Positions 9,893 through 64,000 of a DNA stretch of 64,000 bases are shown in pieces. A model generated the notes under the pieces. That model saw nothing but the letters and a program-made list of their open reading frames with translations, searched no databases and had not been told where the DNA came from. Numbering within the stretch: position 1 is the stretch's first letter; each line of letters begins with the position of its first letter. The stretch lies in the IMG/VR virus record IMGVR_UViG_3300042868_014220. The stretch is one strand, 5' to 3'. The translations under genes were made by a program, and so were the position numbers. The DNA is from a virus. Lineage: Duplodnaviria > Heunggongvirae > Uroviricota > Caudoviricetes.

Positions 9893-9898
9893 AATTTG

Positions 9899-9974: not shown

Positions 9975-9980
9975 ATGTTT

Positions 9981-10232: not shown

Positions 10233-10293
10233 AAATTCTAATTCTATACAGTCACAACATGGGACCCTATGAATTAGTAACAGTCTCACCTCG

Positions 10294-10384
10294 TAGTCAG
10301 TAGAGGATTCGAACCTCCCATCTATGTGGCTACCGTATTTGTGGTGACTCGAACACCGCCTCTAAGACTGACCAACATCCGACT
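10294..10384 (-). other. tRNA-like element with two T-arm modules (double-T-arm), no anticodon arm
   Basis: Acceptor AGTCGGA/ACTGACT; hairpins GGTG-TTCGAGT-CACC and GGAGG-TTCGAAT-CCTCT. Confidence 0.35.
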
Positions 10385-10511
10385 ATTTTGAAAAGATATA
10401 TGGTGTCGCTCCACAGCCTCTACAACCTAAGGATTTTGCTCAGAAGGGATATTATCCGCTCCGTACTTATCCGAGTTGCTAACCCTGTCCTTTCGAGACA
10501 GATATCTTTTG

Positions 10512-10584
10512 TGGTACGAACTGGAATCGAACCAGTGGCACAAGGATTTTCAGTCCTTTGCTCTACCTACTGAGCTACCATACC
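10512..10584 (-). tRNA. tRNA-Phe (GAA)
   Basis: Anticodon stem-loop AAGGA-CTGAAAA-TCCTT; D-arm TAGCTCAGTAGGTAGAGC. Confidence 0.8.
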
Positions 10585-10591
10585 ATTTTTG

Positions 10592-10663
10592 TAGCCCCTA
10601 CGGGAATCGAACCCGTCTTTCTAGAATGAAAATCTAACGTCCTAACCGATAGACGAAAGGGCC
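10592..10663 (-). tRNA. tRNA-Glu (TTC)
   Basis: Acceptor GGCCCTT/AAGGGCC... anticodon loop TTTTCAT. Confidence 0.7.
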
Positions 10664-10797
10664 AAATTGACTTTACCTTACAAAGTCTAAGTAGGTTTAG
10701 TTGCGGTCTCTCCTACCTGATGAAGGCTCTTTTTGTGATTAATCATCACAGGCACGTTATTCATCATTTTAACACGAAGCCAACGTGTTGCTCATCG

Positions 10798-10863
10798 TAG
10801 TCAATACAGGATTCGAACCTGCCCTTGGTAATTACTCCCGTGGTGCCGCTCCACTAATTGACT
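10798..10863 (-). other. Short (66 nt) degenerate tRNA-like element
   Basis: Acceptor AGTCAAT/ATTGACT, D-arm GTGG-AGCGGCA-CCAC, T-arm GCAGG-TTCGAAT-CCTGT; anticodon arm absent. Confidence 0.3.
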
Positions 10864-10891
10864 TCTCCAAGATAATTAGTCTTGAAGATTG

Positions 10892-10966
10892 TAGTCCCTG
10901 TAGGATTCGAACCTACGACCTATTGTTTGTAAGACAACCGCTCTAAACCAACTGAGCTAAGGGACT
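10892..10966 (-). tRNA. tRNA-Val (TAC)
   Basis: Anticodon stem-loop GTTGT-CTTACAA-ACAAT; perfect acceptor AGTCCCT/AGGGACT. Confidence 0.8.
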
Positions 10967-11039
10967 GTTTTTTCTAATATGTCAAAGAACCATTTTCTAA
11001 ATCAACGATACAAAGGTAATGTTATTTTCGATATAAACA

Positions 11040-11080
11040 AAAAAACCCCAAACTTTATTTACAAGTTCGGGGTTTTTATA
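11040..11080. terminator. Intrinsic terminator hairpin (aaaaccccaaacttt...aagttcggggttttt)
   Basis: GC-rich inverted repeat CCCCGAACTT/AAGTTCGGGG-like with T-run. Confidence 0.5.
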
Positions 11081-11279
11081 TTTTATTATTTCTAACTAAT
11101 TTTAACCTATTGTATTTACCGAACTCCAATTTCGCACATTGCGATACCAGCTACAAACTTCTTGTTGCTTAATAAACGACGACTTATGTTCCATTGATGT
11201 TCTCATTTTCTAATAATTATAACAATAATAGGAAAAGTTTCTTATTTGTCAAATATATTTTTCAGAGTATTTATAAAAG

Positions 11280-11702
11280 ATGAGAAATTTAAGACAAATT
11301 ATTAAAGAGGAATTATTATTAGAGAAAAAAATTGGTCAGATTAGAGCCTCTCTTGAAATTGCGTTTTTATTTGATGTTATTAGAACAACTCATGCACATA
11401 TTAGAACGACTAGAACAGGTATTGAAAATTACGAAAAAAGAGATATTGGAAATGACGAAATCAATGAACTTATTAATATGTCAAAAAGTGAAATTGCTGA
11501 AAAAATAGCAATGAGAGAAATTGTTCATGAACAAGACTTTGTAATAAAATCTTTAAGATGGCAGTTGGCATTAGCAATTAGAGCTATTCACGTAGATGGA
11601 ACTTATTGGGAATTACTTGTTAAGACTGTTTTCAGAGAATCCAAAGATAATCCATTTAAAGTTGGTGAGGGTCAATTAGTCATTTATTTAGATTTTAGAT
11701 AA
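11280..11702 (+). CDS. Hypothetical protein with N-terminal IIKEEL motif variant
   Basis: Promoter-like TTATTTGTCAAAT upstream; protein-like ORF. Confidence 0.5.
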   Translation: MRNLRQIIKEELLLEKKIGQIRASLEIAFLFDVIRTTHAHIRTTRTGIENYEKRDIGNDEINELINMSKSEIAEKIAMREIVHEQDFVIKSLRWQLALAIRAIHVDGTYWELLVKTVFRESKDNPFKVGEGQLVIYLDFR

Positions 11703-11890
11703 AAAAAGGATAACACTTGTATCTGAATCGTTCCCGTGTTACCCTTGGTACCCATGTGATTAAGCTTGTGTATCTGAATCGTTCTCCTCAATCACAGTAC
11801 AAAGATACAACAAAATTCCGAACCACAAAATTTATTCTATAATTTTTTTAATTGTCTTTAATGAATTGATTACTATCTTCTATTTATAGG

Positions 11891-12907
11891 TTGATGAAAA
11901 AAATTTTATTTATTCTAAAACAAAGAAACATCTATTCAAATGGCGTTTATTCAAACGTTGACAGTGGATTACAAAACTCGGCGAGATTTGTAAATGATAT
12001 GTTGGTTAAAAACAAAGTTGACTCTACACTAGTACAAGTGGTAGATAATAACGAAATCGACAAATATTGTACTATACACAAACCTGATGTTGTAATCATT
12101 GAAGCAATTTGGGTTGTTCCAAGTAAATTTGAGGTTTTAAAGAAACTACACCCGAATATCACTTGGATAATTAGATTACATTCTGAGTTACCATTTTTGG
12201 CAAACGAAGGTGTTGCAATGGAATGGTTAAAAGAATATGTAAAATACGATAACGTATTTATCGGTTCAAATTCAATTTATTTGATTGATGCCTTGTCTCC
12301 GTATTTGGGAACCAACATCATCTATCTACCAAATTATTATAAAGTAACAAGTAAAGAATCTGTAATAAAGGAAAATAATTATGGTGAGATAAATGTTGGA
12401 ATCTTTGGAGCAATAAGACCAATGAAAAATGCATTAACCCAAGCGGTTGCTGCAATCAATTATGCTAATATGAATAATCTAAAATTAAGATTACATATAA
12501 ACACGGCAAGAGTTGAACAAAAGGGTGAAAACGTATTGAAAAATTTAAGAGCTTTGTTTGTTGATACAAGACACGAATTAGTTGAACATGCATGGTTGAA
12601 ACATGAGGATTTTGTTAAATTGGTTGGGACAATGGATATCTGTTTACAAGTATCAATATCCGAAACCTACAATATTGTTGCTGCCGATGTAGTTAATCAA
12701 AGAGTTCCTGTTGTAACCACAGATGAAATTCCATTTGTTAATAGTTTTAGTTCTGTTAATTCTAACAAAAATGTTGAAAACATTATCTACACTATGAAGT
12801 TTAATCTAAGATTCAAAACTGTGTTAACCATCTTAAATAAGTTCTATTTGTTTGTAAATTCAAAAAGAGCTAAAATGGTTTGGATGAATTTCATCCATAA
12901 TTTTTAG
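11891..12907 (+). CDS. Hypothetical protein (338 aa)
   Basis: Long ORF; no motif recognised with confidence. Confidence 0.5.
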   Translation: MMKKILFILKQRNIYSNGVYSNVDSGLQNSARFVNDMLVKNKVDSTLVQVVDNNEIDKYCTIHKPDVVIIEAIWVVPSKFEVLKKLHPNITWIIRLHSELPFLANEGVAMEWLKEYVKYDNVFIGSNSIYLIDALSPYLGTNIIYLPNYYKVTSKESVIKENNYGEINVGIFGAIRPMKNALTQAVAAINYANMNNLKLRLHINTARVEQKGENVLKNLRALFVDTRHELVEHAWLKHEDFVKLVGTMDICLQVSISETYNIVAADVVNQRVPVVTTDEIPFVNSFSSVNSNKNVENIIYTMKFNLRFKTVLTILNKFYLFVNSKRAKMVWMNFIHNF

Positions 12908-12988
12908 TACCTTGGGTCGGACTCGAACCGACACGACTTTCGCCACAAGTTCCTAAGACTTGAGTGTCTACCATTTCACCACCAAGGC
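12908..12988 (-). tRNA. tRNA-Leu (TAG), type II
   Basis: D-arm TGGTGAAATGGTAGACAC, anticodon stem-loop CAAGT-CTTAGGA-ACTTG, long variable arm. Confidence 0.75.
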
Positions 12989-12991
12989 ATT

Positions 12992-13083
12992 TCATTATCG
13001 CTTCAGCCACATCGGGAAAGACGCCTCCCCCGCGTTGTTTAAGTGTATATCTTGCGTCGTATCTCACTGAGCTACGATAATGA
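12992..13083 (-). other. tRNA-like element with 9-bp acceptor stem and non-canonical T-loop (possible pseudo-tRNA)
   Basis: TCATTATCG...CGATAATGA terminal helix; internal TAGCTCAGTGAGA D-arm-like segment. Confidence 0.3.
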
Positions 13084-13087
13084 TTTG

Positions 13088-13161
13088 TAGTCCCAGTAGG
13101 ACTCGAACCTACGACCTACGGTTTAGAAAACCGTTGCTCTATCCAGTTGAGCTATGGGACC
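13088..13161 (-). tRNA. tRNA-Arg (TCT)
   Basis: Anticodon stem-loop ACGGT-TTTCTAA-ACCGT. Confidence 0.8.
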
Positions 13162-13168
13162 ATTTTTG

Positions 13169-13248
13169 TACCTGGGGAGAGACTCGAACTCTCATTCACA
13201 AGGAACTGAGGCTTAAACCCAGCGTGTCTACCATTTCACCACCCAGGC
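13169..13248 (-). tRNA. tRNA-Leu (TAA), type II
   Basis: Anticodon stem-loop CTGGG-TTTAAGC-CTCAG; D-arm TGGTGAAATGGTAGACAC. Confidence 0.7.
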
Positions 13249-13250
13249 GA

Positions 13251-14024
13251 CTATAGTTTAAAACTCTCTTCAAACAATGTATGACTTTCGTTTTCTTCTG
13301 TATTCATTGTATGTAGAAGTAATATGGTTGAATTGTTAAAATTAAAAATAAACCTACCATCAGAACCTTCGTTGATTTCCCAACCACCAAAATGAGATTC
13401 TAATTCTCTATAACACCAATCTTCAATTCCTGCAGGAACAGCATCACCTGTTTCCTCAAATGAACCTTCAATATATCCAGAATCACCACCACCATTATAT
13501 GGTATAGTCAAAATACCATCTTCAGGAACTTCAATCTCTTTCATATCTGTTTCCATCCAACGCTCAAATCTTTCGATATCATCAGCAGCATCATATTCAA
13601 CTGAGTTTTCATTACCTCTACCATAATAAGAAAACCAATATACAACAGTAATTTCTCTATTAGGACAATCAATTTCAAGGTCAATTTTTTGATAATTTAC
13701 CATATCAATATCCACAAAATCTATTGATTCAAACTTACCTGATTTTATAACCTTGTCCATAATTTTTTGTAAAATTGGAGTTAGATTTTCAGGTATGTCT
13801 GCTCTATAGTTATTTTCAAAATGAGTAACGTATTTCCATTTAATATCATCTGATGTTAGTTCTTGTTGTTGAATATCTAATTCAAAACCTACCACACCAA
13901 CACTCATACCTAATGAACCAAGGTAGTTACATATCCTATTAAGATATTTTTTTTCGTCTAATGTTAAAATTCCATTCATAATTATAAATATCAGTCTTCT
14001 ATTTTCATTGTCCTTAGCATCCAC
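13251..14024 (-). CDS. Hypothetical acidic protein
   Basis: Protein-like ORF. Confidence 0.5.
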   Translation of the reverse strand: MDAKDNENRRLIFIIMNGILTLDEKKYLNRICNYLGSLGMSVGVVGFELDIQQQELTSDDIKWKYVTHFENNYRADIPENLTPILQKIMDKVIKSGKFESIDFVDIDMVNYQKIDLEIDCPNREITVVYWFSYYGRGNENSVEYDAADDIERFERWMETDMKEIEVPEDGILTIPYNGGGDSGYIEGSFEETGDAVPAGIEDWCYRELESHFGGWEINEGSDGRFIFNFNNSTILLLHTMNTEENESHTLFEESFKL

Positions 14025-14338
14025 TGAGGTCTTTTATTCTCTAATAAATTGTCAATCCACTCCTTTGCGGATGGGATATAGTTATTACAATCTTCTCTGA
14101 CGTGTTGTTCACCGACATAACGAGTGTAAACTATTTTCCCATCACTATTGGTAAATTCGGACCCAAATTTCTTCTCCATCTCAAAAATACCTTCACTATG
14201 GTGTCTAAACATTCTGTGTAAAGAATCCGCAATCCAACCTTTTGTTTCATCCAACCATTCGTGTAAATGGATGTAATCTTCAGGTTTTCCACCAAACTTT
14301 TTAACCGAACTTTTTGCGTGTATGTTAGGATGTGCCAT
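13991..14338 (-). CDS. Hypothetical His-rich protein
   Basis: ORF; possible metal-binding His residues. Confidence 0.45.
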   Translation of the reverse strand: MAHPNIHAKSSVKKFGGKPEDYIHLHEWLDETKGWIADSLHRMFRHHSEGIFEMEKKFGSEFTNSDGKIVYTRYVGEQHVREDCNNYIPSAKEWIDNLLENKRPQWMLRTMKIED

Positions 14339-14345
14339 AGTTTAT

Positions 14346-14801
14346 TTAATAATCTTTTCCTTTGTGAAGTAAGTAAGTTGCGTAATATTTTAAGTCCGTT
14401 CCTTGATAATAAATTACAACATAATAATCTAAATCTCCTGAGGGAATATAATTAATCCATATCTTGTCTCCGCACTCATTCACAGCTGAAATTAATCTTA
14501 AACAATCACGAGTACTATCTTCATCCCACTCTTCAATAATTGAAAACTTCATAACAATACCTGCCCTTGTCTTTGAAAACGTAAATGAAGAGTCAGTTAG
14601 GTTAACGTGAAAGTGGTCATATTCCCATTTAGTTTTTTTCTTCGGTTTTCTAATCTTAACATTTTCTGCATCTTCAATCATTTTTTTTGAATTTTTGAAT
14701 TGGTATCTGTATATGGAATCCGCTTCTAAATTCTGACCATTTGCTTCGGACAATCCGAAGATAAATAGGAACATAAGTCCTATGATAAATTTTAACTTCA
14801 T
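14346..14801 (-). CDS. Secreted/lipoprotein-like hypothetical (start set at MKLKFIIGLMFLF signal peptide)
   Basis: Upstream part of track ORF overlaps tRNA-Ala; internal Met followed by hydrophobic signal. Confidence 0.5.
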   Translation of the reverse strand: MKLKFIIGLMFLFIFGLSEANGQNLEADSIYRYQFKNSKKMIEDAENVKIRKPKKKTKWEYDHFHVNLTDSSFTFSKTRAGIVMKFSIIEEWDEDSTRDCLRLISAVNECGDKIWINYIPSGDLDYYVVIYYQGTDLKYYATYLLHKGKDY

Positions 14802-14815
14802 ATTATTTTTTTTTG

Positions 14816-14890
14816 TGGAGACAATGGGTATCGAACCCACCTCAAAAACATTGCAAGTGTTTTTCGCCAAGCCTTGGTACATTTGCCCCC
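14816..14890 (-). tRNA. tRNA-Ala (TGC) with G3:U70
   Basis: Acceptor GGGGGCA/TGTCTCC with G3-U70 wobble; anticodon stem-loop AAACA-CTTGCAA-TGTTT; atypical D-arm. Confidence 0.6.
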
Positions 14891-15077
14891 GTTGTTTCTT
14901 AAATGGAATCGCCATTTGTTGCTTTGTAAATTGCAATAACCAAACCAACCACCCAACCAACAATAACTAAAGTGATTAGGACATCTTTCATTGATAATTT
15001 TCTTAACATATTCATACTATTTTTTTATTTAGGTCACAAAGATACTATAAAATTCTTAATTACCAAATTTATTTTTG

Positions 15078-15160
15078 AGCCTCCTGACGGATTCGAACCG
15101 CCGCGTCCTTACGAAACCTGATTACAAGTCAGGTGCAATCAACCACTATGCGAAGGAGGC
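15078..15160 (-). tRNA. Type II-length tRNA with apparent anticodon TGT (Thr) - identity ambiguous
   Basis: Acceptor GCCTCCT/AGGAGGC, anticodon stem-loop CCTGA-CTTGTAA-TCAGG, ~14-nt variable arm, T-arm GGCGG-TTCGAAT-CCGTC. Confidence 0.45.
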
Positions 15161-15169
15161 ATGTTTTGG

Positions 15170-15241
15170 CGGTCTATGCGGGAGTCGAACCCGCCTCACT
15201 ACCGTGACAAGGTAGCATCCTAGCCGATGAACGAATAGACC
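15170..15241 (-). tRNA. tRNA-Asp (GTC), CCA encoded (15167-15169)
   Basis: Anticodon stem-loop CTACC-TTGTCAC-GGTAG; acceptor GGTCTAT/ATAGACC. Confidence 0.75.
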
Positions 15242-15464
15242 AAATTTCCCCACCCTGAGATTATGGATGAGTGGATTTTAACGGTTTAGTTTTCTTAAAA
15301 ACAAACACATTAGTGTCTTACCACATGAAACTATAAATCAACACTACTGGGAGGAATTGTGTCAGTTCCTTGGTCCCAAGACCCCCTCTGTAAAATCGTG
15401 GAGGGCTACAACTACATCATTGTTAAGAAACGATGCCAAATCTGTGAGTATCTCTTACTCATTG

Positions 15465-15538
15465 AGCGAGTAGTCGGTCTCGAACCGACCCTATTTCACA
15501 TTGGAAGTGTGATGCCATACCAACTAGGCGATACTCGC
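15465..15538 (-). tRNA. tRNA-Gly (TCC)
   Basis: Acceptor GCGAGTA/TACTCGC; anticodon stem-loop TCACA-CTTCCAA-TGTGA. Confidence 0.7.
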
Positions 15539-15973
15539 AATTTTTAATTTAAAATGTAAATCTCTATGACAATTAGAACACAAAATATCACACTTATCAA
15601 TTTCATTTAATATTTTTGTCTTATTTCCTCTCCTAATTAAAGTAGAAACATCAATATCTTTTTCCTCAGGATTTCTGTGATGAAAATCTAAAACCCAATA
15701 TCTATTCTCACCACACACCTCACATTTTAATGTTTTTTTATAATCCGTAAACCATTCAATTATTGATTGTGTAAATACTTTTGCTTTATCAATATATTTT
15801 TTTTTATTTTTTTCATAGTGTTTTTTTCTATAATCACTTTGACATTTTCTACAGATATGTTGAAACATTTTTTCTTTTCTATCATATCTCGATGCGAAAT
15901 GGATATCATCCAACGGCAATTCTAACTCACATTTAGGACATATTTTTATTTTCATATCTATAAATACTTCCAA
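15524..15973 (-). CDS. HNH homing endonuclease
   Basis: Zn-finger CPKC...CRKC plus LDFHHRNPEEK...CSNCHRDLH HNH motif. Confidence 0.75.
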   Translation of the reverse strand: MEVFIDMKIKICPKCELELPLDDIHFASRYDRKEKMFQHICRKCQSDYRKKHYEKNKKKYIDKAKVFTQSIIEWFTDYKKTLKCEVCGENRYWVLDFHHRNPEEKDIDVSTLIRRGNKTKILNEIDKCDILCSNCHRDLHFKLKIASIA

Positions 15974-16006
15974 ATTATAAAAAAACTTGGAAGTGTTAAT
16001 TATTTG

Positions 16007-16090
16007 CTGGCACGGTAGGATTCGAACCTACGGTGTGGTTGCCCAGTCAGGTTAACAGCCTGATGCTCTCGGCCTCTAAGCGACGTACCA
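16007..16090 (-). tRNA. Type II-length tRNA with apparent anticodon GTT (Asn) - identity ambiguous
   Basis: Acceptor TGGTACG/CGTGCCA, anticodon stem-loop TCAGG-CTGTTAA-CCTGA, ~14-nt variable region. Confidence 0.45.
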
Positions 16091-16097
16091 ATATTTG

Positions 16098-16170
16098 TCG
16101 AAAGTGTTAGATTCGAACTACGCCCCAACCTCCCAAAGGTTATGTGCTACCTGACTACACCACACTCTCG
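16098..16170 (-). tRNA. tRNA-Pro (TGG), weak T-stem
   Basis: Anticodon stem-loop TAACC-TTTGGGA-GGTTG; T-loop TTCGAAT. Confidence 0.55.
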
Positions 16171-20334: not shown

Positions 20335-20411
20335 TGGGCCTAGAGGGATTTGAACCCCCGTGTAACCAGCTACGCTTTCTACGCATTATGAGTGCGAGGC
20401 GATATAGGCCC
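20335..20411 (-). other. Degenerate tRNA-like element (intact acceptor and T-arm, possible CAT anticodon loop, D-arm missing)
   Basis: Acceptor GGGCCTA/TAGGCCC, T-arm GGGGG-TTCAAAT-CCCTC. Confidence 0.3.
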
Positions 20412-20899: not shown

Positions 20900-21104
20900 C
20901 TTATTTAATACTTCTCATTTTACCCTCAATCCTCATCATTTTCTCTTGAATATCTTGTAATGCTTGCATCATAGCAAGTTGATTTTCAATTGTCATTTCA
21001 GTTATGTCACTTGAACCAATCTTCAAGTGTTCTCTTGTCTTATCAATGTTTTCCGATAAATTTTTCATAGTGCAAATATATGATTAAAAAATGTAATTCC
21101 AAAT

Positions 21105-22872: not shown

Positions 22873-23553
22873 ATGAATTACGGAAAAGAATTTCAATCGT
22901 TTTACACAGGACATTTAGGTAAACCATCATCACATTTAGATTACTTTGCAAAAAGTATTGAATCATCAATGACTCCATATATTTTGGAAGAAAGGGAAAT
23001 GAGGGTTACTCAAATGGATATCTTCTCAAGATTAATGAGAGACAGACTATTATGGGTCGCAGGACCTGTCAATGATAATATGTCCACTATCGTTCAAGCT
23101 CAGTTAATGTTCTTGGATTCAACGGATAAAGCGGACATTACAATGCACATTGACTCTCCTGGTGGAAGTGTTAAATCGGGTTTGTCTATGGTTGATGTTA
23201 TGGAGTATATCTCTTGTGATATCAGGACTGTTAACACGGGTATGGCGGCTTCAATGGGTTCAGTACTATTAGGTGCAGGTACCAAAGGAAAACGTTCATC
23301 TCTGAAGTTCTCACGAACAATGTTACACCAATCATCAGGCGGTGCTGAGGGTAACATCCAAGACGCTCGTATTAGCTTCATAGAGTGGGAGAAAATTAAC
23401 AAAACTCTGTTTGATTTGTTGGGTTCTTATTGTAACAAAACTGCAGAACAAGTTATGGAAGATGCGTCTCGTGATTTGTGGTTGGATTCTAGCGAGGCAT
23501 TGACCTACGGAATTATTGACGAAATTGTTAAAACAAAAAAGAAGGGTAATTAA
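22873..23553 (+). CDS. clpP: ClpP-family serine protease
   Basis: GMAASMGS (Ser), MLHQSSGG (His), overall ClpP alignment. Confidence 0.8.
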   Translation: MNYGKEFQSFYTGHLGKPSSHLDYFAKSIESSMTPYILEEREMRVTQMDIFSRLMRDRLLWVAGPVNDNMSTIVQAQLMFLDSTDKADITMHIDSPGGSVKSGLSMVDVMEYISCDIRTVNTGMAASMGSVLLGAGTKGKRSSLKFSRTMLHQSSGGAEGNIQDARISFIEWEKINKTLFDLLGSYCNKTAEQVMEDASRDLWLDSSEALTYGIIDEIVKTKKKGN

Positions 23554-28876: not shown

Positions 28877-29551
28877 ATGATTAAGATAGATAAAGATTTC
28901 AAAGGTGATGTGTGGATTTTTTCTGACCCCCACTATAACCACACAAACATTTGTCGTGGTATTACCAACTGGCGTTTACTTAACGGAGAAATTCCAGTTG
29001 ACCAAACTCGTGATTTCCCGAGCTTAGAAAAGATGAACTCATCAATTGTTAACAACATCAACGAAGTTGTTATGCAGGATGACATTTTAATTTGTCTTGG
29101 TGATTGGAGTTTTGGTGGTTTTGAATCTATTAGAGAATTTTGGGATAGAATTGTTTGTAAAAACATTCACTTAATTTTTGGAAACCACGACCATCACATT
29201 GAAAACAACAGACAAGGTTGTCAGGGTTTATTTAAGAGTGTATCTCACTACAACACATTAAAGATTGGTGAATACACATTCCGTTTGATGCACTACCCAA
29301 TCAGTTCTTGGGACGGTTTAAATAAAGGTGTTATGCATCTTCACGGACACTGTCATCTTCCAACCAACTTAAGATTTGGTAAGGGACAAAGAATGGACGT
29401 TGGAATGGATGGTCACCCTGAGTTCCGACCATACCACATTGTTCGTGAAGTGGTTCCTTTGTTAAAGAACAGACCAAAAGTATCCGAAATGGATAATGAC
29501 CACCACACAGATGAAATCACAGGTAGAGAAAAAGATAATAAATTTTTATAA
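28877..29551 (+). CDS. Calcineurin-like metallophosphoesterase
   Basis: GDWSFGG, GNHDHH, LHGHCH motifs. Confidence 0.7.
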   Translation: MIKIDKDFKGDVWIFSDPHYNHTNICRGITNWRLLNGEIPVDQTRDFPSLEKMNSSIVNNINEVVMQDDILICLGDWSFGGFESIREFWDRIVCKNIHLIFGNHDHHIENNRQGCQGLFKSVSHYNTLKIGEYTFRLMHYPISSWDGLNKGVMHLHGHCHLPTNLRFGKGQRMDVGMDGHPEFRPYHIVREVVPLLKNRPKVSEMDNDHHTDEITGREKDNKFL

Positions 29552-32432: not shown

Positions 32433-32512
32433 AACAACTAAAACTATGATAAAAATCCTCATCTTAATCAGTGGGGATTTTTTTATTCCATAATTTTTAT
32501 TATATTTGCATC

Positions 32513-33724
32513 GTGAATCAATTTTTATACACATTAGAACAATACTCAAGGACTGGCCATCTATTCAAACAAGACCATCCTACACTACCATTGTCTATAT
32601 GGAACTACACACCTGAAGTTCAATATGGTCAGTCGTGGGATGAGGTTACTTTGCAGTGTCGTGGATTGGTTACCGATAATGAAGGTAATATTGTTGCTCG
32701 TCCATTCAAAAAATTCTTCAACATAGAAGAAGGTAAACATACTCCAACTGAAGAGTTTGATGTGTTTGAAAAAATGGATGGTTCATTGGGTATTCTTTTT
32801 TATTATGAAGGTGAATTGTTAACTGATGAGGAAAGATATAACATATGGTTTAATAACAATTACGAAACAGGTATGGAAAGGTTCTTTGACCCAAATAAAC
32901 TACCAGAATTTGATAATCCATATTATAAACCAACACCAAAAACAAAAGGTGAATGGATATTTGCAAGTCGTGGTTCATTTACTTCGGACCAATCAAAAAA
33001 AGGTCGAGAATTACTTGAAAAGTATAACTACCAAAGATTGGATACTAACTACACTTATTTGTTTGAAATAATCTTCACCAAAAATAGAATAGTTGTGGAT
33101 TATGGTGATATGGAAGATTTGGTATTACTTGGAATGATACATACCAAAACTGGATATGAGGTTGATATACATTTGGGTAATGATAGAGATATCAGGTTTA
33201 AAAACTTGGTAAGAAATCTTGGATTTAACATCGTTAAAAAATATGATGGTATAAAGGATTACAACGCCTTAAAAGAAATGGTGGAAAACAATGCTGAAGG
33301 GTTTGTTGTTCTATTTTCTAATGGGGATAGAATGAAAGTTAAAGGTGAAGAGTATATTCGTCTTCACAAAATAATGACAAATATATCAACCACTGGTGTA
33401 TGGGAAATGCTGTCTTCAGGTGGTGATATTAACGAACACTTAAAAGATGTTCCTGACGAATTTTATCAAAAAGTTAAACAATATGCAGACAATTTGAAAT
33501 ACGCTTATTTTCAAGTATCAGAGCATTGTGGAAAATCTCACGATTATTTCCGTTATGGAAAATATGGTGATAGGGAAATTGAACCAACAAAGAAAGAATT
33601 TGCGGAGCATGTTATGAAATATTGTCATCCTCCATATCGTGCGGTGATGTTTGCAATGTGGGATGGAAAACCATATGAAAAGATTATTTGGCAAATAATT
33701 AAACCTGAATTTAAAAAACTTTAA
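32513..33724 (+). CDS. ATP-dependent RNA ligase-family nucleotidyltransferase (GTG start after TATATTTG promoter)
   Basis: Motif I KMDGS (KxDG), motif IV EGFVV, motif V KVKGEEYIRLHK. Confidence 0.65.
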   Translation: MNQFLYTLEQYSRTGHLFKQDHPTLPLSIWNYTPEVQYGQSWDEVTLQCRGLVTDNEGNIVARPFKKFFNIEEGKHTPTEEFDVFEKMDGSLGILFYYEGELLTDEERYNIWFNNNYETGMERFFDPNKLPEFDNPYYKPTPKTKGEWIFASRGSFTSDQSKKGRELLEKYNYQRLDTNYTYLFEIIFTKNRIVVDYGDMEDLVLLGMIHTKTGYEVDIHLGNDRDIRFKNLVRNLGFNIVKKYDGIKDYNALKEMVENNAEGFVVLFSNGDRMKVKGEEYIRLHKIMTNISTTGVWEMLSSGGDINEHLKDVPDEFYQKVKQYADNLKYAYFQVSEHCGKSHDYFRYGKYGDREIEPTKKEFAEHVMKYCHPPYRAVMFAMWDGKPYEKIIWQIIKPEFKKL

Positions 33725-36150: not shown

Positions 36151-36423
36151 TTGGGTTATACAAAACTAAAAAATACCATAGAAAAGATGAACAAATTAGA
36201 TAAACAAGATTTAACTTCAGGTATAATTTACGTACCATATATAATTGAAACAACATCAACTTCAATTAACAACACTACTGTATGGTATAAAAATAAATGG
36301 AAAAATCTATGGTTAAAGATAAAGTTCTTCTTTAAAAAACCTGACGAGTTAAAACGATTTGAAAAATACTCTAAAAAATTAATAGACCCAAAATTTTACC
36401 AAGAAATAAAAATTACAAAATGA
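36151..36423 (+). CDS. Small hypothetical protein
   Basis: ORF. Confidence 0.4.
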   Translation: MGYTKLKNTIEKMNKLDKQDLTSGIIYVPYIIETTSTSINNTTVWYKNKWKNLWLKIKFFFKKPDELKRFEKYSKKLIDPKFYQEIKITK

Positions 36424-37559
36424 ACAACCTAGATAAACAATACACAGACCTACTCCAAGACATATTGGATAATGGTGTAACTAAAAAAGATAGAACAGGA
36501 ACTGGTACAATAAGTGTATTCGGTAGACAAATACGTCATAAAATGAGTGATGGTTTTCCATTACTTACAACTAAGAAGATGCCATTCAAAACAATTGTAA
36601 CTGAATTGTTATGGTTTTTAAGAGGTGATACAAACATTAAGTATTTGGTTGATAATAACTGTCATATTTGGGATGGTGATGCTTATAAGAATTATTGTAA
36701 GCACTTTATGGATGAATACTTAGAAAAAAATAAATTAGGTGAGTCTTATAGAAATAGTTTAAGACCATATCCAATAGAAAAATTCATCAACAAAATCAAA
36801 ACAGATGATGAGTTTGCTAAACAGTGGGGTGAATTAGGTCCAATTTATGGTAAGCAATGGAGAAAATGGACTAAAAAGAAAATGTATCTATCAACAGATG
36901 GTTCATATGAGAATATCTACGATGAAGCTGACCAAACTGTTATTGACCAAATATCAATTCTAATTAACGACCTTAAAACAAATCCAGATTCAAGACGATT
37001 AATGGTTAATGCTTGGAATGTAGGTGAATTAGACCAAATGGTGCTTCCTCCTTGTCATTATGGATTTCAGGTTTATACAAGAGAGTTGAGTTTAGATGAG
37101 AGAGTACAGTTATTAGGAGTAGAAAAAATCAACACAACTGACGCTGGTTATTATGAACATAGCTACGCTAAATTAAAAGTAGATGAAGAGAATATTCCAA
37201 CCAGAGCAATCTCTTTAATGTTCAATCAACGTTCAGTAGATACATTCTTAGGTTTACCATTCAACATAGCATCATACGGATTATTGTTAGAAATCATTGC
37301 TAAAACAGTTAATATGGTTCCCGATGAATTAATTGGTAATTTAGGAGACATACATCTTTACCTTAACCATATTGAACAAGCAAAGGAACAAATTGGTAGA
37401 GAACCATTTGAGTTATCTAAGTTAGTAATAAATTCAGGTAATGAAAACTGGCATTTGTTAGACATAGATGAAATTATTAATACCTTTAATACCGATATTA
37501 CATTTAAAGTAGATGGTTATCAGTCCCACCCCACAATTAAAGCACCATTAAGTAATTAA
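36420..37559 (+). CDS. thyA: Thymidylate synthase (ThyA) with two large lineage-specific insertions
   Basis: GTGTISVFGRQIRH, ELGPIYGKQWRKW, LPPCHYGFQVY (Cys nucleophile), LGLPFNIASY, C-terminus HPTIKAPLSN. Confidence 0.85.
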   Translation: MNNLDKQYTDLLQDILDNGVTKKDRTGTGTISVFGRQIRHKMSDGFPLLTTKKMPFKTIVTELLWFLRGDTNIKYLVDNNCHIWDGDAYKNYCKHFMDEYLEKNKLGESYRNSLRPYPIEKFINKIKTDDEFAKQWGELGPIYGKQWRKWTKKKMYLSTDGSYENIYDEADQTVIDQISILINDLKTNPDSRRLMVNAWNVGELDQMVLPPCHYGFQVYTRELSLDERVQLLGVEKINTTDAGYYEHSYAKLKVDEENIPTRAISLMFNQRSVDTFLGLPFNIASYGLLLEIIAKTVNMVPDELIGNLGDIHLYLNHIEQAKEQIGREPFELSKLVINSGNENWHLLDIDEIINTFNTDITFKVDGYQSHPTIKAPLSN

Positions 37560-41068: not shown

Positions 41069-42057
41069 TAAGCAAGTTCAAGAATTCTACTTATAACTAT
41101 TTCAACCTTTTTAGGTGATAATCTATGTTTTGAGGGGTTCCTTTCAAACCATTTTCTAATTACCTCTTCCAATGGTTTACGTTCTTTTTTTGCTCTTCTT
41201 TTAAAACCAGCAATTTGAGCACCTAATTCATGTTTTTGGGTATAATATTTAAAAGGGTCTTTTGGTTCTCTTTTAGGGATATAATCTCCTCTGTCATATT
41301 GGATAATATGTTCCACTTCATGACGAATCAACTCATTAAGTTCGTAATAAAGTTCTTCCAATAATTCTCGGTCTAAATGAGGATTTGAAATTATCTCTAT
41401 TTCAATATAACCCTCTTCATCATAATAACCACCATCAACATCCACAGTATCTATTTCATCACTCAATTCCAATTTTAATTGAATTGTAAAGTTAGTCTCT
41501 AAGACAGGGAACTCATACGTCATCCCTTTATTGATATCTTCAGGTAATATAAATTCTCCTTCTTTTTGGTATTTGAATACTGACATAACATCTTTAACCA
41601 ATTGTCTTGTCATACTATCATATTTACCTTCGACGATTAAACTTTCATTCATATAATTGGATTTACTAAGATTATTAACAATTCTGGTGCAAGTAACGTG
41701 ATTATCAACCTCAAAGTATTTTAAGAAAGTTCTCAACATAGTACTAATATTAGAAGTTATTAAATAAAAAGTTGTATCTGTATTTACAATTTTGTAATCG
41801 TTTGTTTTTAATACTTCAAATTGAGCATTAAGAAGTTTACGAGCAAAGTCAGTATTAACATCTTCTAAAAATAGAGTATATTCAACAAAGTCTGTCCATT
41901 CACCTACGGATATCATTGGTTTAATCCCTGTTAATTCAACTTTGACCGTAAGTGTAATGGGATGGTTCATCCCACTACCAAATGGACTTTGAATCTCAAA
42001 AGAATGATTTTTTAAGAAATGATTTATTTTTTCTATTGGGAAATCTATTTGGTTCAT
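41068..42057 (-). CDS. Hypothetical protein with HEVEH motif
   Basis: IRHEVEHIIQ. Confidence 0.5.
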   Translation of the reverse strand: MNQIDFPIEKINHFLKNHSFEIQSPFGSGMNHPITLTVKVELTGIKPMISVGEWTDFVEYTLFLEDVNTDFARKLLNAQFEVLKTNDYKIVNTDTTFYLITSNISTMLRTFLKYFEVDNHVTCTRIVNNLSKSNYMNESLIVEGKYDSMTRQLVKDVMSVFKYQKEGEFILPEDINKGMTYEFPVLETNFTIQLKLELSDEIDTVDVDGGYYDEEGYIEIEIISNPHLDRELLEELYYELNELIRHEVEHIIQYDRGDYIPKREPKDPFKYYTQKHELGAQIAGFKRRAKKERKPLEEVIRKWFERNPSKHRLSPKKVEIVISRILELA

Positions 42058-42494
42058 CTATTATAAATACTTGAAAATGGAATTGATAACCCTACACCAT
42101 ACCTAAAACCTTCAGAATAATTTAAACCGAGACAAAAATCCACACCACTCTTATTTTTTGTAACCATTCTTATTGGGAAAATCTTTAACCAAATATCGGG
42201 AACCGTCTCAATACCATTGATATTCTTCTTGACAAATCCTCCACCCATTATACTATATGTGTTTTTTTTATTAACATAGGTAAAACCCATCCGATTCACA
42301 ATAACACTTGGGGTTATGTAAATAAACGGTTGTAGACTACTTGTCGTATAGGTTCCTCCGACATACCATCCGAGTTGTTTGAAGTTATATGAAGTAACTA
42401 AAGCCTGTTGGTTGGGGACATACATAATATCTGTTTGTTGTGCATTGACAATAACATATAAAAATAGTAAGATTGATGTTATTAAACTTTTCAT
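42054..42494 (-). CDS. Secreted outer-membrane beta-barrel-like protein
   Basis: Signal peptide MKSLITSILLFLYVIVNAQQ; alternating beta pattern, C-terminal aromatic. Confidence 0.5.
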   Translation of the reverse strand: MKSLITSILLFLYVIVNAQQTDIMYVPNQQALVTSYNFKQLGWYVGGTYTTSSLQPFIYITPSVIVNRMGFTYVNKKNTYSIMGGGFVKKNINGIETVPDIWLKIFPIRMVTKNKSGVDFCLGLNYSEGFRYGVGLSIPFSSIYNR

Positions 42495-46011: not shown

Positions 46012-46686
46012 ATGAAAATTGTATTCATTTCAGACACGCACGGTAAACATAAGATTTTAACATCTAAAGCGTATAATAACATCTTGGGTGAAGGTTTTTG
46101 TTTGGTTCATGCGGGAGATTGTACCAATGTTGGTAAAACTCACGAAATTAAGGAATTCTTGGATTGGTTTTCAGATACACCATTCACACATAAAATATTC
46201 ATTGCAGGTAATCACGATTTTGGATTTGAAAAGAACCACGATATTGACCAAGAATATAAAGACAAAGGTGTTCATTATCTTTTTGATAGTTCAGTTGAAA
46301 TTGAGGGAATTAAGTTCTACGGAAGTCCGTGGCAACCTGAATTTTATGATTGGGCATTCAACCTACCAAGAGGTGAAAAACTAGCTGAAAAGTGGGCTAA
46401 AATCCCTGAGGATAGTGATATCGTAATTACACACGGACCAGCATACGGAATGGTTGATGCCACAATCCAAGGTACGAATGTTGGATGTCACGATTTATTC
46501 CACCGACTTATGAAAGTTCAACCAAAAATTCACGTTTGTGGACACATACATTGGTCTTACGGTCAAAAATCATTTAATGGTATTGAGTTCTTAAATGCGT
46601 CTACCTTAAATGAAAGATATGAATATGAGAACAAACCAATTGTAATTGAATTTAATCCTGAGACAAAAGAAATTGACTATTTATAA
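46012..46686 (+). CDS. Calcineurin-like metallophosphoesterase
   Basis: FISDTHG, GDCTNVG, GNHD motifs; TATATTTG immediately upstream. Confidence 0.7.
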   Translation: MKIVFISDTHGKHKILTSKAYNNILGEGFCLVHAGDCTNVGKTHEIKEFLDWFSDTPFTHKIFIAGNHDFGFEKNHDIDQEYKDKGVHYLFDSSVEIEGIKFYGSPWQPEFYDWAFNLPRGEKLAEKWAKIPEDSDIVITHGPAYGMVDATIQGTNVGCHDLFHRLMKVQPKIHVCGHIHWSYGQKSFNGIEFLNASTLNERYEYENKPIVIEFNPETKEIDYL

Positions 46687-47014: not shown

Positions 47015-47662
47015 ATGGCAACAGAACAAAGTCGATTTTCAAAATTACCAAAAAAACAATTAGTTTTAATTGCTGAAAAATTGGTTGATGGAGATTTTCC
47101 TTCAGGAAATCCTTACCAAGACAATGATTATGATGAACATTATAAAGCATTGGAAAACATTGCAAGATTTTTTAACCTTGACGTAATGGATGAAGATGTC
47201 CAATTTTTCTCCAAGTTCCTTGAAATTAATGATAACCTCCTTTCAAAAATCTTTGGTGGTGATAAAAGTTTAACTGAAGAACTTATAATACCCATGGCAA
47301 GAACTTACGAATTACAATATAGTGTTTGGGGTTCTTGTACTTATGATGAATATTTAGCTCAAAATTTTGACGCTTACGATAAAAATTGGGTTGAAGACTC
47401 CGCAAGACAACAACAAAATGATGGAAATTTTGACCTTTATGATGGTAGAAATAGGGGTGAAACTATTTACGACAATTTTGAAATGTCGGACTATGAGTTT
47501 GGTTTTGTTATTGAACTTAATGATGATAGAACTAACGGCATTAGAGAATCAATATTAAAACACCTTGTTGTTGAAAATACATCAAAAGTTGTATCGTCGT
47601 TAGATAAAAAAACTTTATTGAAATTAAAAAGAATTATTGATTCAAGACTTTCGTCTCTTTGA
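47015..47662 (+). CDS. Acidic hypothetical protein
   Basis: ORF. Confidence 0.5.
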   Translation: MATEQSRFSKLPKKQLVLIAEKLVDGDFPSGNPYQDNDYDEHYKALENIARFFNLDVMDEDVQFFSKFLEINDNLLSKIFGGDKSLTEELIIPMARTYELQYSVWGSCTYDEYLAQNFDAYDKNWVEDSARQQQNDGNFDLYDGRNRGETIYDNFEMSDYEFGFVIELNDDRTNGIRESILKHLVVENTSKVVSSLDKKTLLKLKRIIDSRLSSL

Positions 47663-47875
47663 TTTTAAAGGTTTTTTACCATCGTTTACCAAATCACCCA
47701 ATGTTTTTTTCTTACCTGATGGTAATGGTTCAAATCCCTTCTTCCATTTATATTCAACAGAAATAGGTCCATTGGTAGTTATTTTTGAATCGTATTTCCA
47801 AATAGAAATCTCCTGTTCATCTTCATACACAACCTCCCATTTTGTTGGTTTCTCAGGAATATTTTGTTTCGCCAT
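47642..47875 (-). CDS. Small basic hypothetical protein
   Basis: More protein-like than overlapping + strand ORF. Confidence 0.4.
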   Translation of the reverse strand: MAKQNIPEKPTKWEVVYEDEQEISIWKYDSKITTNGPISVEYKWKKGFEPLPSGKKKTLGDLVNDGKKPLKSKRRKS

Positions 47876-53662: not shown

Positions 53663-54097
53663 TTAGGAATTTTGGTTAATTTCCCTGTCAATATCCCTCT
53701 TTTTCATCGTTTCCCTTTTATCATACAGGTTTTTACCCTTTGCAAGAGCTATTTCGACCTTAATTAGACCCTTTTCGTTGAGAAATACTCTATATGGGAC
53801 AATGGTTAACCCTTTAATCAATTCCTTCTGTAAACGAGACAATTCTCGTCTTTTTAGTAAAATTTTACGGTCTTGATTGGATTTATGGGTATAATCTGAC
53901 AATATTTCACTAATATTAGCGTTTTTTAGGTATAATTCACCATCAATAAAGGTACAAAACGCTTCAGATATTGACATTTTACCATTACGAATTGATTTCA
54001 CTTCGGAACCCATCAATACAATACCACCAACTTCAGTACGGATGAATTGATATTCAAACTTGGCTTTCTTATTTATTATATTAACTTGACTATTCAT
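53663..54097 (-). CDS. smpB: SsrA-binding protein SmpB
   Basis: KKAKFEY...GIVLMGSEVKSIRNGKMSISEAF...TIVPYRVFLNEKGLIKVEIALAKGKNLYDKRETMKKRD matches SmpB conserved blocks. Confidence 0.75.
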   Translation of the reverse strand: MNSQVNIINKKAKFEYQFIRTEVGGIVLMGSEVKSIRNGKMSISEAFCTFIDGELYLKNANISEILSDYTHKSNQDRKILLKRRELSRLQKELIKGLTIVPYRVFLNEKGLIKVEIALAKGKNLYDKRETMKKRDIDREINQNS

Positions 54098-54149
54098 AGT
54101 GCAAATATAATAAAAAAACTCTCAAGGTGTTGAGAGTTTTAAATATTTT

Positions 54150-54710
54150 TTAAGCAATATTTGTATCAATTGGTTTTGGTTTTGGAGATGCACCTGCTAA
54201 ATATCCGTCGGCTACTTTAGCCAACAATGGACCAGTTCCCCATTTTTTAAGTCCTTGCATTCTTGATAGTTTGTAAAGACCGACATCATTCTTTAATCCA
54301 TTAACAATGTCCGTATAATATCCTAATTTCAAAGTTTCGCATGTTGCTTTAATCCCATCTTCCATTGACCGATAGTTTTTAACTCCTTTACTATTAAAGT
54401 TTGTTGTTCCTGACATTTTTTTAGTTGTATTAAATGGGTTGAATTTTGCGGTTGCTCCTTCAGCTTGTCTCCAAGCATACATAAATGACATATTACCTTT
54501 AGTTGGTTGAGCACCAAGACATTGTAATACCTTCTTATAAAACTCATCATCAGATGTTGTTTTAGATTGGACTTTATCATCCAATTTTTTTGAGTCCAAA
54601 TCTATTTTTTTTGAATTCAAGTCTGATGAGTTACCACCCATTGTCATTTTTAAAATGTTACTAAGCAATTTTGCTAAATCTTGTTCATTAAGTCGTATAA
54701 CTCTTTTCAT
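54150..54710 (-). CDS. Hypothetical protein (N-terminal IRLNEQDL motif)
   Basis: ORF. Confidence 0.5.
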   Translation of the reverse strand: MKRVIRLNEQDLAKLLSNILKMTMGGNSSDLNSKKIDLDSKKLDDKVQSKTTSDDEFYKKVLQCLGAQPTKGNMSFMYAWRQAEGATAKFNPFNTTKKMSGTTNFNSKGVKNYRSMEDGIKATCETLKLGYYTDIVNGLKNDVGLYKLSRMQGLKKWGTGPLLAKVADGYLAGASPKPKPIDTNIA

Positions 54711-61432: not shown

Positions 61433-61687
61433 TTATACTACATCATTTACAGGATAATCGTGTGCAATCTTAAACCATTTACTCACAACCTCAAATAAAA
61501 TCTTATCAATAAAGACCCTACCAAATTTTTTACCTAACTCATCTTTAACAACATCGGAAACAAATATGGTTCCACTTTTAATGTCGTATAAGAAAAACTC
61601 ATTGTGCCAAGTTTGTTCCGTCTTATTGTAATAAAGATAGGGAAAACTAAACTTATTCTCAATAAACTTTATAATTTCTTTCTTCAT
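61433..61687 (-). CDS. Small hypothetical protein
   Basis: ORF. Confidence 0.4.
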   Translation of the reverse strand: MKKEIIKFIENKFSFPYLYYNKTEQTWHNEFFLYDIKSGTIFVSDVVKDELGKKFGRVFIDKILFEVVSKWFKIAHDYPVNDVV

Positions 61688-62386: not shown

Positions 62387-64000
62387 CTAGTCTTTTATAA
62401 ATTTGGAATAGAATCTTAATCCACTTTTCTTAACCAATTGGATGATATAAAATCCTTTTTGTAATTCTTCGGTATTAATTTTTATTAATTCCCCGTTAAA
62501 TTGACTCAAATCTATTTCTTGGATAGTTTTTCCTTGAATATCGGTAATTAAGATTGTTTCATAAGTTTGTAATTGTCCTTGAATTAGTAAATTCAAATTT
62601 TTTTGATTTGGATTAGGGTACAAAGCCTTTATACCAGTTTGGGTATTGCTGTGCTCTAATTGTACAATATTACTAAAGGTAATTAATCCACTATTTTCTG
62701 TAATTCTGAGTTGGTAATAGGTTGAATTATAAGCCAGATGTTGTGTGTTTATAAATTCATAGTGTGTCAATGAATTGGTGTTATTTAATGCCGTGATATC
62801 ACCTATCGGATTAAAATTGAAACCATCATAAGAAATCATAATCTCATATTTATCGATGTCACTTTCATCGGCAACCTGCCACTCAATATAATGATGATTC
62901 ATTACTTGATAGGCTTCAAAAGAAATTAATTTGACGGGTAAAGGAATACAAAACGGAGTTAAAATAAAGGTGTCTCTAATGGTTTGGCAAATGTTATTTT
63001 CTATTTGCCACACAAGACTGTAAGTTCTTAGTGAATCCCCTGTGAAGGTGGCATTAGGATTGTGAATATCACTGATAGTGCCTCCCGAACCGCTTATAAT
63101 AATCCATGTGCCCTTAGAATTTCCGTTTGTTGATTGTGCATTTAATTGACAAGACCCACAGTGAGTATCAGAATCTGATGCAGATGAAATGTGTCGGTCA
63201 ATAATGGACGAAACAATGAATAATCCATTGGTTGTACCCGCACCTCCTCTCGTAGCTCCATTCGCTATAAATTCTGTTAATGCTGCAGAAGTAGTAGTAC
63301 CATTTACACCACCATTTGCTATTCTTGTTGGGCTCCCGTTTGAGATAGAAATAGTTCCACCGCCACCTCCACCTCCTGGACCTTCTGCTTCGTTACTAGT
63401 TATTAATTGATTACCTCCATTACCGCCATTTGTAAATAAGTTTAAAGTGTTTGCTATTGTGCCATCAACGCTTAATAAGACTGTACCACCACCGCCACCA
63501 CCACCAGGAGCATCATTGTGTCCCGCCGTTGTATTGGGTGAGTTTCCTCCACTTGAGGTAATAACGCCACTTCCTGATAAATTACCATAGCAAAGAATCA
63601 AAACTATTCCACCCCCGTGGCCACCTCTTGTTGCTGCCGAATTATTACCATCACCTGCACCTCCTCCGCCTCCAAAAAATGTTCTAGTATTGCTAAAAAC
63701 CAAAGGCCTTCCACCATAGCCACCCGAATTTCTTCTCCAATCTCCACCCCAAAGACTATTACCAGGTGCGGTTATTATTGCATCTCTATTAGCCCCAGAA
63801 TAAGTATATCCCCCTCTACCTCCTCCAGATGAAGTATTTGTTGAAAATGTACCTCCTTCCAAATTCCATGCGGTTGTCCAATTAATTGGTCCGTTGTCCG
63901 GATTTCCTAGTCCGTTCCAAGCAGATACAACCCCACCATTTGCACCACCCCCACCACCAGCATTGTGAGAATTACCCCCTCCCCCTCCATTTGCAGGAGC
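62387..64000 (-). CDS. Partial CDS (N-terminus outside window): glycine-rich repeat protein with Bacteroidota T9SS C-terminal sorting domain
   Basis: Reading frame open to window edge; GGGGG/NGGNGG repeats; C-terminus ...LYPNPNQKNLNLLIQ...ITDIQGKTIQEIDL...LQKGFYIIQLVKKSGLRFYSKFIKD typical of the Por-secretion CTD. Confidence 0.6.
   Translation of the reverse strand, partial: APANGGGGGNSHNAGGGGGANGGVVSAWNGLGNPDNGPINWTTAWNLEGGTFSTNTSSGGGRGGYTYSGANRDAIITAPGNSLWGGDWRRNSGGYGGRPLVFSNTRTFFGGGGGAGDGNNSAATRGGHGGGIVLILCYGNLSGSGVITSSGGNSPNTTAGHNDAPGGGGGGGTVLLSVDGTIANTLNLFTNGGNGGNQLITSNEAEGPGGGGGGGTISISNGSPTRIANGGVNGTTTSAALTEFIANGATRGGAGTTNGLFIVSSIIDRHISSASDSDTHCGSCQLNAQSTNGNSKGTWIIISGSGGTISDIHNPNATFTGDSLRTYSLVWQIENNICQTIRDTFILTPFCIPLPVKLISFEAYQVMNHHYIEWQVADESDIDKYEIMISYDGFNFNPIGDITALNNTNSLTHYEFINTQHLAYNSTYYQLRITENSGLITFSNIVQLEHSNTQTGIKALYPNPNQKNLNLLIQGQLQTYETILITDIQGKTIQEIDLSQFNGELIKINTEELQKGFYIIQLVKKSGLRFYSKFIKD

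Follow-up and report, generated by a model that had tools for sequence, protein, structure and literature searches.

In bacteria such as Escherichia coli and Thermus thermophilus, ribosomes stalled on truncated mRNAs are rescued by trans-translation, which relies on the SsrA-binding protein SmpB and its RNA partner, the transfer-messenger RNA (tmRNA) encoded by ssrA. Most bacterial tmRNAs encode tags of ~10-11 residues that end in LAA (about GENNYALAA in Bacteroidota). Parts of this system also occur in phages. An earlier catalogue lists ssrA only, in Bxz1-like mycobacteriophages, in phage G and, as the tRNA-like domain (TLD) only, in DS6A (PMC4131195), and in phages of the Melnitz type (Melnitz and pelagimyophages) the tmRNA is two-piece and accompanied by a glutamine riboswitch (PMC9004378). 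A role in the upkeep of hijacked translation machinery, or in protein tagging, has been proposed for phage ssrA (PMC4131195; PMC9004378). SmpB together with tmRNA has already been reported in huge phages (Al-Shayeb et al., 2020, PMC7162821), where the description is a single sentence without analysis of tag, linkage or promoters. Here we describe an smpB gene at positions 53663..54097 (minus strand) of a 64,000-nucleotide stretch of the Caudoviricetes record IMGVR_UViG_3300042868_014220, the whole of which is referred to as the window. We consider it very probable that this is a functional smpB of a ~320-kb jumbo phage with a likely Bacteroidota host and that, with the tmRNA of the same phage, it would constitute a virus-encoded trans-translation (ribosome-rescue) system. 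With the Bxz1 group, Bacillus phage G, DS6A, Melnitz and the pelagimyophages it shares a phage-encoded ssrA, but no phage SmpB has been reported for them. A phage with both SmpB and tmRNA is a known kind; what is added here is a linked smpB-ssrA cassette, dedicated promoters, a clade-specific long tag and the blindness of the ARAGORN program to this type of tmRNA.

The original prediction had recognized the 144-aa product as SmpB by conserved blocks and had proposed a profile search as the check. The quoted blocks (KKAKFEY, GIVLMGSEVKSIRNGK and TIVPYRVF...IALAKGKNLYDKR) are all present in the translation of the ATG-to-stop open reading frame (ORF), and the searches detected clear SmpB homology. 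PF01668 matched with E=4.3e-44 and 150.4 bits (cutoff 27; profile positions 3-139 of 143), TIGR00086 with 152.8 bits vs. an equivalog cutoff of 119.1 (positions 3-141 of 144) and NF003843 with 151.8 bits vs. a cutoff of 130, so that the score lies above both NCBI equivalog cutoffs. In PHROGs the protein matches family phrog_6791, which is labeled 'unknown function'. Solved SmpB chains from the Protein Data Bank (PDB) align with it end to end, the best being 7ljp (126.8 bits). The window protein thus belongs, at equivalog level, to the same family as the bacterial proteins of E. coli and T. thermophilus (7ljp, 5zey, 1j1h, 6q98), shares with them a tail with the DKR motif and is comparable in length to Thermus SmpB (144 aa). 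Unlike them, it is phage-encoded, as is its tmRNA, and its identity to cellular SmpBs is only 41-55%.

The basic C-terminal tail of SmpB with its D-K-R motif is required for tagging, as established in E. coli work. In the window SmpB this tail is intact (..GKNLYDKRETMKKRDIDREINQNS), and the stretch ..GKNLYDKRETMKKRDIDREI pairs residue by residue with the tails of solved SmpBs. Across 17 aligned phage SmpBs, residues D126, K127, R128, K132, D135 and R138 show little or no variation. In E. coli SmpB, Y24 and H136 contact the decoding centre; their positions are occupied here by Y16 and Y125 (match to 6q98_5, in which query residues 7-135 correspond to chain residues 15-146), and Y16 is nearly invariant within the phage clade. 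The ratio of nonsynonymous to synonymous substitution rates (dN/dS) for smpB was 0.07-0.13 against the four closest relatives, with dS saturated, which indicates that the gene is under purifying selection. On the evidence of profiles, structural alignment and dN/dS, we conclude that 53663..54097 is a genuine, intact smpB and no chance ORF.

A tmRNA candidate 52 kb from smpB had been part of the same prediction, and a one-piece tmRNA was indeed located at 987..1377 (plus strand), at a distance of 52.3 kb within the window. Rfam model RF00023 matches there over its full length (model positions 1-374 of 374) with 65.8 bits vs. a gathering score of 47. The acceptor stem (GGGGGUA/UACCUCC) contains the G3·U70 alanine identity pair, and the terminal CCA is encoded. 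For an alignment of 17 homologues, RNAalifold, which cannot model pseudoknots, predicted 73 pairs, of which 26 show compensatory changes; acceptor positions 4-7 covary and G3·U is unchanged in all complete homologues. Directly after the CCA a terminator-like hairpin (AAAUGGGGUC..GACCCCAUUU) is followed by a T-run (1381..1416, plus strand), and relatives have an equivalent. In its one-piece form, G3·U70 pair, CCA end, resume codon and tag ORF the molecule resembles bacterial tmRNA, and by these features it is, as far as its sequence can tell, complete from alanine-identity acceptor stem and CCA end to tag ORF and terminator. The terminal CCA is not encoded in some homologues (L011, L014, L019, L024 and L036, with ends such as ...CCACTT or ...CCACAA), and these would, unlike the window copy, depend on a CCA-adding enzyme.

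The tag frame (1081..1149, plus strand) consists of a GGC resume codon, 22 codons in total and a TAA stop, giving (A)GNVLNKMALVGLVKQDELVSVA. Rfam places GGC 1081-1083 at the position of the consensus resume codon, and the posterior probability there is high. Viral contigs yielded 28 distinct homologues, all of which keep this frame open for 21-22 codons and retain its stop, whereas a stop interrupts the +1 frame after 3 codons in each of them. Substitutions in the tag frame concentrate at third positions (80 vs. 38 and 32 at the other two), and one in-frame 3-nt indel was observed. We also sought host tmRNAs for a comparison of tags in the 3-kb flanks of 80 Bacteroidota loci, and none was found there.

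A search of viral contigs with the exact pattern of the window tmRNA 3′ end gave no match; a degenerate pattern of the tRNA-like domain was required, most matches to which were unrelated phage tmRNAs with tags of the ANDDF..AA type. ARAGORN reported 23 tRNAs in the window and no tmRNA, and with the -m option it recognized 2 of 39 flanked regions of the window-type tmRNA family. Where it succeeded (L012, L013 and L219, the last from the same contig as L012), it independently called the same tag frame. Missed by ARAGORN and with a tag of 22 residues ending in ...VSVA, the window tmRNA departs from its bacterial counterparts. Since surveys of phage tmRNA used this program (PMC7162821, PMC9004378), which detects 2/39 of this family, phage trans-translation has probably been under-counted.

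In IMG/VR we identified 41 viral loci with smpB relatives (42-80% identity, contigs up to 322 kb). In addition, >120 SmpB clusters (90% identity) were found at 70-98% identity to the window protein, nearly all with a length of precisely 144 aa; their contigs reach 319 kb. The identical SmpB sequence was present with the same neighbours in 48 blocks of public metagenome assemblies. In 30 of the 41 viral loci smpB has a homologue of the window tmRNA (75-84% nucleotide identity) as a neighbour at a distance of 0.46-2.3 kb, and in 29 of these 30 the tmRNA is downstream and convergent, on the opposite strand. This conserved linkage is the strongest comparative evidence that smpB and ssrA would function jointly. 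The closest relatives of the window SmpB (L007, L008, L009 and L022, 76-80% identical, and L015, 67%) have no tmRNA within 10 kb, as in the window. As smpB and ssrA are adjacent and convergent in most relatives, the comparison indicates that the 52-kb gap is a derived rearrangement of an ancestral linked smpB-ssrA cassette, in the sub-lineage of the window. L015 (IMGVR_UViG_3300047550_004400) carries a GOLLD RNA at 5774..6182 (plus strand; RF02032, 320.9 bits) directly upstream of its smpB (6246..6671); no GOLLD RNA was found in the window itself.

The situation in the huge phages is different. By tblastn, smpB was detected in the 636-735-kb genomes of Al-Shayeb et al. (LR756501-04) and in all Lak megaphages, whose records are without annotation. 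These phages and the window have in common an smpB in very large genomes rich in tRNA and translation genes, with a likely Bacteroidota host (Prevotella for Lak). Yet their SmpBs are only 43-50% identical to that of the window and share no clade with it, and no Rfam tmRNA was found within 6 kb of their smpB. In three of them (LR756501, Lak-C1 and LR756502; L100, L102 and L104) smpB lies within 6 kb of tRNA arrays, with no Rfam tmRNA nearby.

According to the original prediction, smpB sits inside an operon of unknown proteins. This was correct in so far as the gene belongs to a same-direction minus-strand array, composed mostly of ORFans, that runs from ~49.1 kb to beyond 63.8 kb, and the next gene begins 11 nt past the smpB stop; it was not correct for the upstream side, where smpB has a hairpin and a promoter box of its own. 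The hairpin, terminator-like with an 11-bp stem and a T-run, occupies 54115..54140 (minus strand) between the upstream gene (54150..54710) and smpB. The box, TATATTTG at 54102..54109 (minus strand), ends 4 nt before the smpB ATG and fits TAnnTTTG, which we take to be the consensus of the Bacteroidota -7 promoter box. Hairpin, T-run, TTAT(A/C)TTTG, 4 nt and ATG precede smpB in 18 of 23 viral relatives, with hairpin sequences that differ; this arrangement is absent at smpB from the Lak and LR7565xx phages. In relatives with the tmRNA beside smpB, the tmRNA has a promoter of the same type that ends 14 nt before the mature 5′ end. With a terminator-like hairpin and then a host-type promoter box of its own ahead of it, smpB most likely heads its own transcription unit, read by the host RNA polymerase into a leaderless or near-leaderless mRNA.

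The smpB box is one of several. TAnnTTTG followed by 4 or 5 nt and ATG occurs 12 times in the window, vs. 3.5 ± 1.7 in shuffled sequences (maximum 9); ORFs of ≥55 aa follow 11 of the 12 sites, and a hairpin often precedes the box. Genes preceded in this way include 7705..8181 (minus), 20901..21068 (minus), 28877..29551 (plus), 42054..42494 (minus), 46012..46686 (plus), 47642..47875 (minus) and 61433..61687 (minus), besides smpB (53663..54097) itself. The boxes imply a class of promoters in this phage that would be served by the host RNA polymerase and would yield leaderless mRNAs.

Upstream of the window tmRNA, the region 852..968 (plus strand) contains a putative promoter (TTTG at 852-855, 19 nt, TACCTTTG at 875-882) and a structured leader RNA running into the tmRNA. 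The leader is ~80 nt long (889..968), with a stem P1 formed by 889-895 and 962-968. Over the 115 nt that precede the tmRNA (872..986), phages whose SmpBs are only ~60% identical share 89-93% identity, and a 30-nt core of the leader occurs without change in 68 IMG/VR viral contigs (L185-L245; the copy in L012 is at 6953..7066). Of 66 assessable loci, 37 have a tmRNA after the leader and 22 have same-strand tRNA genes or arrays there instead. Among 41 distinct leader copies, changes on both sides affect 6 of 7 P1 pairs and one variable hairpin, around an invariant core. An Rfam E-value search of the region upstream of the tmRNA returned a chance miRNA hit only and no match at E≤1. In Melnitz a structured RNA element is likewise attached to the tmRNA transcript; unlike there, the window tmRNA is one-piece and the attached element is a 5′ leader without Rfam match instead of a 3′ glutamine riboswitch. 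We regard the leader as a candidate new RNA motif with a regulatory, processing or catalytic role. Hammerhead and pistol ribozymes were considered and rejected, as core motifs and stem topology fit neither.

A complete trans-translation module carried by a virus, as had been foreseen in the original prediction, is borne out by the presence of an equivalog-level SmpB and a complete tmRNA in one window. Its mode of action can be outlined with steps taken from the established bacterial pathway, smpB and tmRNA being known here from sequence. Host RNA polymerase would transcribe smpB from the TAnnTTTG promoter, yielding the (near-)leaderless mRNA, and SmpB would bind and stabilize the tRNA-like domain of the phage tmRNA, which the host alanyl-tRNA synthetase would charge via G3·U70. 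EF-Tu would then bring the charged complex to ribosomes that a truncated mRNA has left stalled with an empty A site, where the SmpB tail would probe and occupy the vacant mRNA channel. Translation would resume at GGC and add A-GNVLNKMALVGLVKQDELVSVA, and on termination at the tag stop the ribosome would be freed and recycled. The hydrophobic ...V-A (or A-A) C-terminus is probably a degron for Clp-type proteases, possibly a phage ClpP working with a host unfoldase. A likely benefit is that ribosomes would stay available during infection despite the many non-stop complexes arising from phage-induced decay of host mRNA or from host defence nucleases that cleave mRNA or tRNA, which fits the array of 23 tRNA genes and the T4 Rnl1-type RNA ligase in the same window. 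Phosphoesterases, which with the ligase could mend tRNAs, and a cellular-type ClpP are part of this setting too. Since SmpB and tmRNA act 1:1 and bacterial tmRNA is unstable without SmpB, a phage with an extra tmRNA would plausibly need extra SmpB.

The window does encode a cellular-type ClpP homologue of 226 aa (22873..23553, plus strand; PF00574, 187 bits). It scores below the equivalog cutoffs (236.5 bits over the full length vs. 361 for PRK14514; 182.2 vs. 308.6 for TIGR00493) and is, judged by Pfam, a diverged member of the ClpP family. Relatives with 75-90% identity occur on at least 600 viral contig stretches, and ClpP and the leader-RNA core occur together on at least 8 contigs. The PHROG label of prohead protease was judged less likely, since prohead models gave 67-75 bits vs. 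236 for cellular ClpP. By association, this ClpP is a candidate protease for tmRNA-tagged proteins.

Several observations weigh against a functional rescue system of a phage. In its central pseudoknot region the fit of the tmRNA to the Rfam model is poor, with low posterior probabilities. The 22-residue tag is unusually long and its ...VSVA end is not the classical LAA. Within the window smpB and ssrA are 52 kb apart and co-regulation is not evident there. No ClpX was seen in the window, and the link between ClpP and tagging consists of co-residence. Finally, searches with Pfam and PHROGs found no capsid, portal, terminase or tail genes among ~40 window ORFs.

In another reading the system has been repurposed and the phage does more than supplement the ribosome rescue of its host. 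The clade-specific 21-22-residue tag would then direct the products of stalled ribosomes to a fate controlled by the phage (e.g., by the phage ClpP), with recycling of host proteins or neutralization of the effects of host abortive-infection nucleases as the outcome, and the leader RNA (889-968) would govern expression of the tmRNA and of tRNA arrays as a sensor or processing element. We consider this unlikely, although it retains an appreciable chance.

It is also conceivable that the phage SmpB mainly serves the host tmRNA and not that of the phage, or moonlights as a regulator. The loss of smpB-ssrA linkage in the sub-lineage of the window would suit such a role, as would the smpB of the Lak and LR7565xx megaphages with no Rfam tmRNA within 6 kb, and separate regulatory roles of SmpB are reported in some bacteria (PMC7270562). 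Yet tight linkage to ssrA persists in 30 of the 41 related loci and the window has kept both genes, so that we find this account very unlikely. The chances are similarly slim that the phage SmpB, with or without the phage tmRNA, shuts down host trans-translation as a decoy or inhibitor by titrating the tmRNA, SmpB or ribosomes of the host. A precedent exists in the TLD-only phage tmRNA, as in DS6A, which is reported to inhibit endogenous tmRNA (PMC4131195; PMC11915505), and the phage tag is unlike typical short tags. A decoy, however, would need neither tail nor tag, and here the tmRNA is full-length, its tag ORF is open in 28/28 homologues and evolves like a coding sequence, and the SmpB tail residues used in productive rescue are conserved.

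A functional phage system further presupposes that the window is viral and does not come from a small cellular genome or a giant plasmid-like element with smpB and ssrA as natural components. The lack of a structural phage gene in these 64 kb would agree with such an origin, as would ClpP, thymidylate synthase (ThyA) and an aminotransferase of cellular type, and large putative plasmids have similar sets of translation genes (Al-Shayeb et al., PMC7162821). Against this, relatives of smpB, tmRNA and ClpP sit on viral contigs in IMG/VR, the longest of 322-326 kb, and several of these contigs are independent and near-equal in length (317-326 kb). The window moreover has a one-of-each tRNA array, an endolysin, a T4 Rnl1-type ligase and an HNH endonuclease, and most of its ORFs are ORFans or belong to PHROG-only families of unknown function. 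DNA comparison of the window with cellular-type records gave no match. A cellular SmpB scan covered one genome per species for 185,579 species, using patterns from the phage SmpB alignment that bias and limit the search, and none of the matches listed exceeded 55% identity. A non-viral origin is accordingly highly improbable in our view. From the relatives and the gene content, with no hallmark gene in the window, we infer that the carrier is a jumbo phage with a genome of ~320 kb; so far as the data allow a judgement, the viral assignment made at the outset is upheld by the relatives on viral contigs and the phage-type accessory genes. An 8-kb query from the window searched against 50,697 phage records matched nothing but a 128-bp patch within smpB, which means that no close sequenced phage is available.

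The remaining proposal, a recently captured host gene kept as a passenger without a role in the phage, is effectively refuted: its nearest cellular relatives do belong to the probable host phylum, but the best identity among the matches listed is only 55%, GC and third-position GC (GC3) equal the phage background, the gene persists throughout a deep clade of phages at 42-80% identity and a dN/dS of ~0.1, and it has a conserved phage-type promoter architecture and linkage to a phage tmRNA, which leaves the passenger next to no probability.

As for the origin of this phage smpB, the best 80 cellular matches listed came almost only from Bacteroidota, at 42-55% identity, and included Flavobacteriales, Cytophagales, Bacteroidales, Saprospiraceae and Chitinophagaceae; identity to non-Bacteroidota SmpBs from PDB was 41-46%. 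We built a neighbour-joining tree of 78 sequences over 141 columns, SmpB being too short for a firm phylogeny. Viral SmpBs of the window clade formed one bipartition with weak support (66 of 200 bootstraps). A single clade of all phage SmpBs, including those of the Lak and LR7565xx megaphages, was rejected (1 of 200). GC content (0.32) and GC3 (0.30) of smpB equal the phage background (window GC 0.314), and because of this and the dN/dS of 0.07-0.13 the gene is, on compositional and evolutionary grounds, old in the phage lineage and ameliorated, with no recent capture from a host. A protein with a C-terminal sorting domain of the type IX secretion system (T9SS; Por_Secre_tail, E=1.3e-10) is encoded at 62387..63862 (minus strand), and also in L001 (1..1711); this domain is a Bacteroidota-specific secretion signal and hence a useful host indicator. 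SmpB affinity, the T9SS domain and the TAnnTTTG promoter boxes together make a member of Bacteroidota the most likely host.

A clade of ~320-kb environmental phages has thus, in all likelihood, kept a linked smpB-ssrA cassette under selection and with host-type promoters, which argues that ribosome rescue is a real need during infection and no annotation curiosity. How phages may use tagged proteins can be approached through testable handles, namely the tag with its length and conservation, the ClpP encoded in the same window and the still unclassified leader RNA.

The rest of the window (GC ~31%) has few products that can be identified. Besides those mentioned, they comprise the T4 Rnl1-type RNA ligase (32471..33724, plus strand), two metallophosphoesterases (28877..29551 and 46012..46686, plus strand), an endolysin with GH19 and peptidoglycan (PG)-binding domains, an M23 peptidase, an SPFH protein and a PG-binding protein. 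The 23 tRNA genes called by ARAGORN lie at 7560..16170 (minus strand) as part of the phage translation toolkit, and Rfam added one further weak tRNA (34.6 bits) at 20335..20411 (minus strand). Together with the ligase and the two metallophosphoesterases, the tRNAs may form a tRNA supply-and-repair kit against host anticodon nucleases. Thymidylate synthase (36420..37559, plus strand; 379 aa) matches profiles of 264-318 residues in two or three separate stretches, and these split matches suggest an insertion of roughly 40-100 residues.

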